NCBI GenBank assembly: GCA_024685275.1
Contig: JAIKVY010000246.1
Location: 10-64,009, forward strand
DNA from: Clostridia bacterium
GTDB lineage: Bacteria > Bacillota > Clostridia > Christensenellales > DTU072
DNA length: 64,000 bases
Reading direction: 5' to 3'
Shown here piece by piece: positions 42,801 through 45,800 of the stretch. Below the pieces are notes generated by a model. It saw only the letters and a list, made by a program, of their open reading frames with translations, made no database searches and had not been told where the DNA came from. Each line of letters opens with the position of its first letter. The first letter of the stretch is position 1. The position numbers and the translations under genes were made by a program.

Positions 42801-45800
42801 GAGAGGTAGATATAATGAGACAAAAGATATTTCAGTTGGTGATAGAATTTATCTATCAGAAAGTCAATACTATCAAGCAGTATTTTCTGCTCTACCAAAG
42901 ATTCCAATAGCATTAGTACATGGCTTGCTAGCAGATAAGGCATATGCTAACTTAGGTTTACATAAAACGATACAAAGCGATGCATTAAAAACAATATTTA
43001 AAATAGTTGATATTTTAGGATTTTTACCGGGCCTTGAAAGAAATGATGATGTAGATACAGATACATCTTTGCAAGACTTTATTGCGTTGTTATTAGACTG
43101 CCCGAAATTCCCAGAAATAATTTTAACAGCCGTTCAAGGATTATTAGGATTATTGAACTTAATCCCTTATGCTAAGTTTGTATTTATTCCAATTAACTTT
43201 GTATTAAATCAAGTAATTTCTGTTTTTGAAAAATTAATAGATGCCGTATTTGAATTAATAGATTATTTATTACCACTTTTATATAACTTATTACCACTTG
43301 AATCTGGGTATAATATGTTTAATACATATGACTTAAAGGGTAGCCCACTTGAAAGTGCTAAATTTGCATATACGATAAAGGGAACAGAGAAGGATTCAAA
43401 TGAAGTAGAAACCGAAACCACAATAGAATCATATAATAGTTCTTTAGCAAGCCTGTTCTATGAAGAAAGCGGACAAAAAGAACTTGGTGATTATAGCGTA
43501 AAAACAGCTCAAGGCGTAGAAAACGTTACATTATATAGACAAACAGATTCAGTTGATAGAAGTGTTTATGCAAAAGTATCATTAAATAATGGAAGTATAT
43601 TTGGAGCTCTTGAGTCAATACAATTATTTGTAAACGGTGCTTCGTATACATCTACAATTGAAAGTAAATATGCCGAACTAGAAGAAGACTTTAGAACTGG
43701 TAAATCTAATGATACAAATGCTCAATGGAGTTATGACTATGAAAAATATTATGGAAGAAATGGAACATTCTTCTCAGGTGAAATAGTTGATAAATATGGT
43801 AATCGTGGATCTGGTTATTCATTTAGCTTACCAGATGCATCGCTTGAACACACAATAAAGGCAACGGATATTAGAATATTACCAATTTATGAAAAAGGCG
43901 AAAAAGTTGCATTTAATCATTCATATTATAATGCTGCTGGTACTTTAACAACTGGCGCATATGGCTCTGCAAACTTTAGTAATAACTTACAATTCATGAA
44001 TGATTGGATTGGAACGAATAACACAAATAATTATTCTGTAACAGATATTTATTACTTTGATCCTATTACTGAAAAGAAAGTAGTTTATTATAGATATTTT
44101 GTATATGATGCATATGGCGATAAATATTCAGTTGGCCAAAGCGTAAAACAAGATAGATATCAAGAACTCGAAATTAATTTAAGTTCAGGTTTGAATTTAA
44201 GACATGTCGTAGATATTAATTCAGATACAATATTGTTTAGTAGATATAAATCTGTAGATGATAATGGTGCAATAGCACTAATGGGAATATTACAAGTTGA
44301 AGAAGATTGGCAAAATCCAACCAAGATTGTATTATATGATCCATATGATTTAACAGACTTTGAGGTACATGGTGGAACATGGGCAACAAATAATGGTGGA
44401 CAAGTAGTTAGAAACTATAATCCAAATGTAACCGTATATGACACTTTAGCAAATAGAGCAAAGATAGACTTTGACGATGGCGCTAGCACAGGTACATATG
44501 GAGCAAATGTATTCTGGGATTTCGATACATTTAAAGCTTGCAAATCTGATGTAACCACACACTTAAATGGATATATAGGAAATACTATTTATTCAGAAAT
44601 AGAAGTTGAAATTAAACTAATTTCTCTTGAAAGCGATAATCAAGGAGATGAAGAAACAACAGTATCAGCTAAAGCTGAATTGTTAGAAGTTGCAGCAAAT
44701 ACTAGATTCGATCCAAGAGCAGAAACCGTTGAAGAATTCATGAATAAACTTTGTGAAGGATTTGAAATTTACTATTCTGCAGCAAATAGTACAAATGGAA
44801 AAGAAAAGACATATTTATACAATGATGTAACATGGTCATTAGATTATGTTGAAACAGAATATAAAGACGCTAAAGGAAATGTAATTAGAAGCTATGATTC
44901 TTTAGTTGATTATGATAACGCATACATAAATATTAAATATAGAACATATGGAGTAGATGAAAATGGTAATGCCTATGCTTCAAATACAGGATATAGTTCT
45001 ATGGTTATTAAACTCAATGAAGTTATAAATTACACAGCAAATGGTGTTGAAGGCGAATTAGAAGGAACAATTGGTGGAATTAAACGCGATACAGAATCTG
45101 AAAAGATATTTGGCGTTGCTACAATTAATCCATTAAATAACACAAAGCCACTTGAGACAATGCAAAAGCTCAAGAAATTTGATAAGGTGTATTTAAATAG
45201 TGGTTCAGTAACTACAGATTGGGAAGTAATTAAGAATTCATTTGCATTAATAGGTAACGAAAAAGGTTTAACACTAGAAGATTATGATGTTTTAGACACA
45301 AGTGCTCAAACATATTATGTTTCATACGCAATTACAGATGCTACTGGTAATATTCAAAAAGTAATTATTAAAGTAGTAATTCAATCAAGCGGAATAGTTG
45401 GAATCGAAGAAACAAATCAAGGATCAGAAAATGATAGAAACCAAGTATTAATTCTTCCTAATGGTGAAGTTCAAGCTGATGTAAATGAAGATCCAATTAA
45501 ATATGTATTAGACACATTACACTTAAATAAGAATGTAACATTAATATATGATAATGGTGGAAAAGAAGTTGTTTCATTGAACGAAGATGGTAAATTTAAT
45601 GAAGATTTAGATAGCAATATTAAGGCTCAATATGTTTCATATGTAACTGGTATTGATGAAAACAATAAGTATATAATTGAAAACTTCATCTTAATTGAAG
45701 GTAAAGGAGGATTAAGCTATTTAGTTCCTTCACTTGAATACAATAAAACACAAGACTTTGATATCTATGCTCAAGTTGGTGTTCAAGGATATACAAAATA

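Follow-up and report, generated by a model that had tools for sequence, protein, structure and literature searches.

The 64,000-nucleotide stretch of Clostridia DNA analysed here (the window) carries an open reading frame (ORF) of 37,452 nucleotides at 15781..53232 of the forward strand. This ORF remains open over 37 kb and encodes a giant lipoprotein of 12,483 residues. The subject of this analysis is an apolar patch in the C-terminal third of the protein, encoded in frame by positions 42889-43310 (residues 9037-9176). The patch is real and conserved: it is a helical insert confined to one family and includes a variable apolar hairpin. The explanation favoured here, which has about an even chance of being correct, takes the patch for a soluble sub-domain made of helices, with an apolar hairpin that is shielded and serves packing or association.

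The helical insert is the sole departure from beta-sandwich modules in the C-terminal third of the giant protein. Within the human gut microbiota, the order concerned, Christensenellales, ranks among the groups that are most strongly heritable and most closely linked to health, and to our knowledge its cell surface has hardly been described. If the hairpin were an association or membrane-contact surface, it would be the most tractable handle on the role of the giant protein, and natural long, short and hairpin-less variants of the surrounding module of about 475 residues exist for comparison. If the hairpin is only the core of a domain, the finding is an ordinary one.

Composition of the apolar patch

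A sequence-only reading of the window had described about 140 residues with a hydrophobic, proline-punctuated helical character. All peptides quoted in it, including an acidic loop, are present in frame at residues 9037-9176. When all 140-residue segments of the protein are compared, the most apolar one starts at residues 9032-9034 and contains 54.3% of the residues L, I, V, F, M, A, W and C, the protein-wide mean being 36.5% (z = 4.0 for the patch). The accompanying claim that nothing comparable occurs in the C-terminal 4,000 residues holds on the scale of 140 residues, where the runner-up reaches 40.7%; on the scale of a single 19-mer, the patch is equalled at residue 10275. Shuffling the residues of the whole protein reproduced the observed maximum in 37 of 2,000 trials (p ~0.02). 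Consequently, composition alone is modest evidence.

The decisive evidence that the patch is real is the recurrence of its apolar, charge-poor character at the equivalent site in relatives. The corresponding region is 43-55% apolar and 9-18% charged in 22 same-genus sequences; for 15 representatives across the genera of the family, the figures are 47-58% and 7-20%, respectively. The proline punctuation is conserved as well, with four prolines (residues 9108, 9129, 9172 and 9189) invariant in the genus alignment.

Distribution of the module

The patch sits inside an otherwise beta-rich module of about 475 residues (residues 8815-9289; 42223-43647). The motifs of this module are KFRS, RIRLGAD, Y.Y.E.W, GRYNE and GAYxQA..SA.AK..GL.H in its N-terminal part, followed by D.I, P, LP....YNMF.T..L.GSPL, D.S.YAK and LF.NGASY in its C-terminal part. 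The protein encoded in the window carries all motifs of the module chain of family f1 at residues 8815-9289. The module is an undescribed family, defined in this analysis. It is restricted to one family of uncultured Christensenellales and occurs once per giant Sec-exported lipoprotein.

This distribution was obtained from several searches. A six-frame search with the single sequence located the region in 21 of 24 same-genus genomes, always within one giant open frame; 16 genomes representing other families within the order gave no match. Complete same-genus frames comprise 11.2k-13.7k residues, and shorter ones end at contig ends. A profile of 29 sequences detected the module in 19 of 401 genomes of the order. 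All 19 belong to family f1 and represent 6 of the 173 genera; the open frames that carry the module have 6.4k-13.7k residues. In all, 36 sequences were used for the alignment. Using phmmer, residues 8994-9239 matched only two of 1.84 billion representative proteins, both of them same-genus fragments. A word-indexed homologue search with the C-terminal 10,000 residues gave no match in its region 6417-6917, and the same kind of search with a 651-residue piece returned no identical or near-identical fragment and no independent assembly. The insertions specific to the window's version are known from one assembly. The related contigs are all metagenome-assembled genomes (MAGs) labelled Christensenellales, Christensenella, Catabacter or Clostridia. 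Within both giant proteins of the window, BLASTP revealed no internal paralogue of residues 8901-9300 below an E-value of 0.3. The literature on giant proteins of gut Firmicutes yielded nothing relevant.

A side observation concerns the host protein. The length of the module-bearing ORF ranges from about 6.4k to 13.7k residues across the genera of family f1, which implies that the protein has gained or lost large portions, the module being retained.

Conserved core and variable hairpin

Three core helices, namely H1, H4 and the C-terminal half of H6, are common to all genera, with invariant Gln, Ala, Asp, Pro and Tyr residues throughout the relatives. The core insert comprises 61-77 residues between a Q-A and a Y-N anchor, and the invariant residues in the genus alignment are Q, A, D, four P, Y and S. 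In two genera, that of the window and g18, an extra apolar hairpin is found between invariant prolines, around an invariant Ile-Pro. The proline of the turn, P9129, is invariant in the 22 same-genus sequences and is also found in the g18 sequences. With 145 residues, the helical insert of the window is the longest known version.

The lengths of the two hairpin arms co-vary, with a Spearman coefficient of 0.89 across 29 sequences. The observed pairs of arm 1 and arm 2 lengths are (0, 18-19), (7, 29-34), (10-11, 33), (16, 43) and (19, 40), with (21, 43) in the window. An antiparallel helical hairpin of variable length would be expected to show just this pattern, with paired insertions flanking a fixed turn. 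Arm 1 has 7 residues in most same-genus species, 5 residues in the g20 and g21 sequences (as recorded in the tree run) and none in g19, L051 and L052. The hairpin is absent in four genera that retain both the module and the giant protein.

When an insertion is defined as a residue possessed by fewer than half of 28 relatives, lineage-specific insertions account for 50 of the 140 patch residues (9063-9072, 9076-9090, 9114-9127 and 9134-9144). Among them are the larger part of the acidic loop and the central part of the most TM-like (transmembrane-like) stretch of the patch. The sequence-only reading had treated absence of the patch from otherwise conserved homologues as a sign against it. The acidic loop, arm 1 and part of arm 2 are indeed missing in most relatives, but a smaller apolar three-helix core persists in all genera, the hairpin being gone from four of them. 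In a tree calculated from the flanking sequences alone, the length classes are dispersed and the window sequence occupies a long branch.

Between close species, the ratio of nonsynonymous to synonymous substitution rates (dN/dS) is 0.04-0.12 for the patch and 0.05-0.16 for the flanks, with the patch equal or lower. The Gly-rich hairpin of L011-L014 shows 88-97% identity, compared with 71-92% in the flanks. Because purifying selection on the patch matches or exceeds that on the flanks, the insert is taken to be functional within each lineage. Judged from these alignments, it is strongly constrained within lineages and remodelled between them.

The same data bear on the explanation that the patch has no function, being either a linker of biased composition that drifts within a rapidly evolving giant protein or an artefact of MAG assembly. 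The long branch and unique insertions of the window sequence, the modest p-value of its composition and the failure to match its exact sequence in the independent assemblies searched are all compatible with such an origin. However, the ORF is open over 37 kb with the insertions in frame, the element stands at the equivalent place in all relatives with invariant residues, purifying selection is strong and the arm lengths co-vary. A functionless linker was rejected on these grounds, and the explanation as a whole is considered highly improbable.

Two divergent metagenome relatives, L051 (490-522) and L052 (448-495), have no hairpin in the patch and carry a Gly-rich apolar piece in another loop of the module, upstream of the Y.Y.E.W strand. 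These pieces start with I-P-aromatic/Gly-x-G (AIPYVGGFLGGLLGGG and QIPGLGYLINW). From these sequences, it looks as if such an apolar element can arise at more than one site in the module. A regular-expression search found no further I-P-aromatic-x-G turn in the giant protein.

Predicted structure of the insert

Two AlphaFold2 runs were performed. The first used the long form of the window (residues 8800-9450) with a 22-sequence alignment and reached a mean predicted local distance difference test (pLDDT) score of 59.7. The second used a natural short form with a 29-sequence alignment and reached 61.4. In both models, the patch is all-helical with beta strands on either side. The claim that a helical patch is embedded between beta domains is thus compatible with both predictions, which have low confidence in the patch itself; the downstream beta domains of the long form score 82-93. 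The features of the module and their surroundings are as follows.

15781..53232, + strand: giant lipoprotein ORF; N-terminus MKNRKKFLSVFILIVCIVLALCMVAC followed by S, 19-mer with a Kyte-Doolittle (KD) value of 3.2 and an additive insertion energy of -5.2
42223..43647, + strand: family-specific module, from KFRS..Y.N to LF.NGASY (alignments A1 and A3; profile search)
42562..42639, + strand: strand YVYVEIWL (Y, E and W invariant), then apolar helix, residues 8937-8953 (AlphaFold2, alignment)
42859..42948, + strand: core helix H1, residues 9027-9056, present in all genera (AlphaFold2, alignment)
Residues 9060-9063: short helical turn (AlphaFold2)
42967..43068, + strand: variable segment, consisting of amphipathic helix H3 (residues 9067-9081) and acidic loop LPGLERNDDVDTDTS (residues 9082-9096)
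43069..43113, + strand: core helix H4 (residues 9097-9106) and proline kink CPKFP; D9099 and P9108 invariant
43108..43155, + strand: hairpin arm 1, H5, residues 9110-9125, FPEIILTAVQGLLGLL; holds the most apolar 19-mer of the patch
43156..43170, + strand: hairpin turn NLIPY, residues 9126-9130 (AlphaFold2, alignment)
43171..43290, + strand: hairpin arm 2 and core helix H6, residues 9131-9170 (AlphaFold2, alignment)
43294..43350, + strand: conserved cap P-x-x-x-x-Y-N-M-F-x-T-x-D-L-x-G-S-P-L, residues 9172-9190 (alignment)
43555..43647, + strand: start of beta domain, DRSVYAKVSLN ... LFVNGASY; pLDDT 82-90; D, K, L and N invariant

The core helices bear the marks of helices in a water-soluble bundle. 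In H1, Q9032 and A9033 are invariant, S9036, A9037, K9040 and H9047 are nearly so, and a stripe of conserved small residues runs along the helix. The C-terminal half of H6 (residues 9146-9171) is amphipathic, with a conserved and partly acidic polar face, and its family-wide hydrophobicity profile peaks sharply at 100 degrees (0.42, as opposed to 0.20 or less elsewhere). It is the polar face of H6 together with the small-residue stripe of H1 that indicates a soluble bundle. In the amphipathicity analysis, one of the checks proposed earlier, the last helix behaves as in a soluble bundle, and the hairpin tip (residues 9111-9145) has a flat spectrum without helical periodicity. The N-terminal half of H6, including the insertion at 9134-9144, is uniformly apolar. 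Since the tip is apolar all round, it must be covered by something. The apolar helix at residues 8937-8953 is a likely packing partner of the patch helices.

Outside the core, the variable segment has an occupancy below 50% at residues 9063-9072 and 9076-9090 and is mostly missing from relatives. In the cap that follows the helices, P9172, Y9177, S9188 and P9189 are invariant in the genus. A G-x-x-x-G packing motif is present at columns 9153/9157 (43237-43251) of the last helix in 21 of 35 relatives; the protein of the window has Ile and Phe at these columns and an extra Pro at residue 9165, so the packing of this helix probably differs from that in the rest of the family.

Membrane propensity

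The membrane propensity of 19-mers was scored on a simple additive scale of insertion energies of the Hessa type (Hessa et al. 2005). Within the patch, the best 19-mer scores +4.1 kcal/mol (KD 1.72), and the second arm lies at about +5 to +10 kcal/mol by hand summation. For reference, the signal anchor of the giant lipoprotein reaches -5.2 kcal/mol, the eight TM helices of CopA, which is encoded in the window, range from -3.1 to +4.6 kcal/mol, and the best stretches of four soluble control proteins of the window fall between +6.5 and +13 kcal/mol. The hydrophobicity of the hairpin lies between that of ordinary soluble cores and that of true TM helices.

These values are relevant to the suggestion of a genuine TM hairpin that changes the topology of the protein, that is, a hairpin integrated by the Sec machinery during export and re-anchoring the chain in its own membrane. 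The overlap of the best 19-mer with the weakest TM helices of the polytopic CopA speaks for it. However, the best 19-mer is far less apolar than the signal anchor, the second arm scores about +5 to +10 kcal/mol by hand summation, there is no positive-inside flank, the preceding loop is acidic, the arms have 7 residues or are absent in most relatives, and the last helix has a conserved polar, acidic face. Two spans of about 19 residues near or below zero are not present (best arm +4.1), nor are both spans conserved in orthologues, where arm 1 mostly has 7 residues or none. The Sec-inserted hairpin was rejected on these grounds. Because +4.1 kcal/mol is well short of Sec integration and most orthologues have an arm of 7 residues or none, it is very unlikely that the hairpin is genuinely TM, and this is the least probable of the explanations considered.

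Comparison with known families

Pfam yielded no pore-former, fusion or lipid-binding match for the whole protein or for 22 aligned members at E-values up to 1, NCBIfam gave no match for residues 8001-10400, and profile searches of PDB sequences with alignments A1 and A2 gave none either. Foldseek comparison of both low-confidence AlphaFold2 models with the PDB returned nothing meaningful (best E-values 0.18 and 0.26). A Colicin_V match in one of the 22 members (E-value 0.057) was discarded, as this model represents CvpA, a membrane protein family unrelated to Colicin. At the sequence level, membership in the Colicin family likewise found no support, the Pfam Colicin model being unmatched in the giant protein and in the 22 members. 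The same holds for the translocation domain of large clostridial toxins (LCT; PF12920, TcdA_TcdB_pore), a translocase region conserved in evolution (PMC6978384), which was unmatched in the 22 members at E-values up to 1 and in the whole protein at E-values up to 0.01. An LCT-type association with an effector and an autoprocessing protease was also dismissed, as Pfam found no such domain across the 12,483 residues.

Resemblances in layout are nevertheless apparent. The channel domains of colicins Ia, A and E1 consist mostly of amphipathic helices around an uncharged helical hairpin of about 40 residues, in a total of about 140-180 residues (PMC2585860). The hairpin of the window (residues 9110-9148) is similar in having about 39 residues, two short apolar arms and a Pro/Tyr/Lys turn. 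In contrast to the colicins, it shows no sequence or profile match and, with models of low confidence in the helices, no fold match to the ten-helix globular bundle with its buried H8-H9 hairpin, it has no adjoining immunity gene, it stands mid-chain in a lipoprotein of 12,483 residues and not at the C-terminus of a released bacteriocin, and it is variable or absent in relatives. In the LCT translocation domain, an apolar alpha-helical region is embedded in, and wraps around, an extended beta-sheet scaffold (PMC6978384). An apolar helical region on a beta scaffold in a very large exported protein of Clostridia is a comparable arrangement, but the insert of the window family is much shorter (61-145 as opposed to about 160-170 residues), no glucosyltransferase, protease or other effector domain was detected in the protein, and the latter is lipid-anchored while LCT are released.

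Alpha-pore-forming toxins of the ClyA, Hbl-Nhe and YaxAB-XaxAB types have a long amphipathic alpha-hairpin of which only the tip is uniformly apolar. The hairpin of the window similarly grades from an apolar tip (9114-9137) to an amphipathic base (9146-9171); it differs in the lack of a Pfam or Foldseek match, of a long helical tail domain and of a gene for a partner subunit. Finally, the giant repetitive surface proteins and fibrillar adhesins of Firmicutes share with the giant lipoprotein a membrane anchor at the N-terminus, beta-sandwich modules extending over thousands of residues and occasional helical sub-domains between Ig-like domains. Compared with these, the module of the window lacks a described family and is confined to one Christensenellales family, and for a soluble domain outside the cell its insert has unusually many apolar and few charged residues.

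The principal alternative is less probable than the favoured explanation, though by no means negligible. In it, the insertion idea of the sequence-only reading is transferred to the time after secretion: the patch would be a latent membrane-insertion element whose shielded hairpin swings out and buries its tip in a bilayer as an anchor or pore nucleus. The trigger would be contact with a target membrane (of a host, a prey or a neighbouring bacterium), acid or another stimulus, and the models would be the H8-H9 hairpin of colicin channel domains and the apolar helical stretch of LCT translocation domains. Such an element would be consistent with the uniformly apolar, unperiodic tip at residues 9111-9145 and its amphipathic flanking helices, with a hydrophobicity that approaches the insertion threshold in L012-L014, with the low charge of the insert (7-20%), with the strong selection on the hairpin and with the layout shared with known precedents (PMC2585860; PMC6978384). 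Its weaknesses are that Pfam, NCBIfam, PDB sequences and Foldseek gave no match to a pore-forming or translocation family and that the gene's surroundings contain no effector, immunity or secretion partner genes. Moreover, each arm of the window's hairpin contains only about 16-17 apolar residues, and N, Q and P occur within the second arm. The hairpin is also short (7 residues in arm 1) in most same-genus species and absent in four module-bearing genera; as relatives with a short or absent hairpin keep the module, the hairpin cannot be the core function of the module.

A pocket for hydrophobic ligands was also considered and appears rather improbable. In this case, a cavity lined by the apolar helices would accommodate a lipid, a sterol, a bile acid or some other hydrophobic molecule of the gut. 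Selection acts on these apolar, Gly-rich helices, the gut and rumen habitat of the MAGs is rich in such ligands, and a variable hairpin length could tune the size of the cavity. However, no lipid-binding fold or family was matched in Pfam, the PDB or by Foldseek, and the invariant residues are mostly structural (Pro, Gly, Ala and Tyr), with no recognisable binding motif.

The earlier proposal of a candidate insertion or pore-forming hairpin, or of a lipid-binding pocket, is borne out in part, namely for the hairpin. An apolar alpha-hairpin is supported by the co-variation of the arms (0.89) and the helix-turn-helix predicted by AlphaFold2, and it is under purifying selection (dN/dS 0.04-0.12); no family match supports the proposed activities. 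The contact-dependent function that had been attached to it finds no backing in the gene context.

Interpretation of the hairpin

According to the favoured explanation, of a soluble sub-domain with a shielded hairpin, the ancestral insert would have consisted of three helices (61-77 residues) packed as a small soluble bundle, probably together with the apolar helix at residues 8937-8953 and the neighbouring sheets. Two genera would then have grown an apolar alpha-hairpin from the junction of the second and third helices, around the Ile-Pro turn, and the species of the window would have acquired the longest hairpin together with an extra amphipathic helix and the acidic loop. The patch would cross the membrane along with the rest of the chain, without forming a TM hairpin. 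In the folded protein, the hairpin would lie on the bundle or an adjacent domain, or pair with the same element of a neighbouring molecule. A hairpin shielded in this way would therefore offer a hydrophobic surface for packing or association. The data establish the restriction to one family, a conserved core with a variable hairpin, purifying selection, an amphipathic core helix and a marginal TM propensity; how the bundle packs, that the hairpin is shielded and that it serves association is what we infer.

Several observations weigh against this explanation. The pLDDT of the patch is low (33-58 in the long form and 50-71 in the short form), so that no confident model from either run supports the packing. 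No stretch of the soluble controls is as apolar as the hairpin, which overlaps the weakest TM helices of CopA. In L012-L014, the arm VGIVFTILGTVAGALGSIL reaches a KD of 2.1 and about +0.4 kcal/mol, which is borderline membrane-competent, and an insert with only 7-20% charged residues resembles a membrane protein. By analogy, a uniformly apolar hairpin ringed by amphipathic helices would be exactly the resting-state design of colicin-type pore formers (PMC2585860).

A bolder version of membrane insertion is also conceivable, although improbable. The hairpin might be a new contact-dependent membrane-insertion device, placed mid-chain on a lipid-anchored surface filament of more than 1 MDa in gut Christensenellales. 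The amphipathic helices would shield the hairpin until the filament touches another cell, its reach being tuned by the lineage-specific lengthening of both arms. Such a device would have no relation, either in sequence or in fold, to colicins, large clostridial toxins or ClyA-type toxins.

Gene surroundings and additional observations

The giant lipoprotein gene occupies about 1.7% of a 2.2-Mb genome, and no described family matches the protein. Its N-terminus contains a signal peptide and lipobox with Cys26. The only Pfam match in all 12,483 residues is CarboxypepD_reg (residues ~8383-8425); a Big_1 match is sub-threshold (E-value 0.0019, 18.7 bits against a cut-off of 34.9). The 64-kb window has a G+C content of 27-31%. 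The neighbours of the gene are all ordinary housekeeping genes: a CCA-adding enzyme, TilS, Fe-ADH, a HAD hydrolase and a LOG-like gene upstream, and htpG, a thioredoxin-reductase-like gene and copA downstream. Neither a secretion partner nor an immunity or effector gene was found in this gene context, and no small membrane-protein gene adjoins the giant ORF.

Four further segments of the protein deserve mention. In residues 9259-9300 (43555-43680), the Asp, Lys and Asn of the pattern D.S.YAK...LF.NGASY..E are invariant across all 29 sequences, and its Glu is nearly so. As pure speculation, the spacing of these residues might suit an intramolecular cross-link of the isopeptide type, as in Gram-positive adhesin domains. 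An acidic Gly/Asp-rich loop at residues 8892-8927 (42454-42561) lies between the invariant R.R.G.D motif and the Y.Y.E.W strand. It is disordered in both AlphaFold2 runs (pLDDT below 45) and could be a metal-binding or flexible hinge segment. Residues 10275-10293 (46603-46659) form a lone apolar 19-mer, LIIQLSSIEIVSFGISAAL (KD 1.78, additive insertion energy +4.1), which matches the best 19-mer of the patch in apolarity and lies outside any longer apolar region. The most TM-like internal segment of the giant protein is the apolar stretch at residues 8188-8228 (40342-40464), beginning LLITIYAMGEIGSIINLFV, with an additive insertion energy of +3.0 and an uncharged run of 31 residues.

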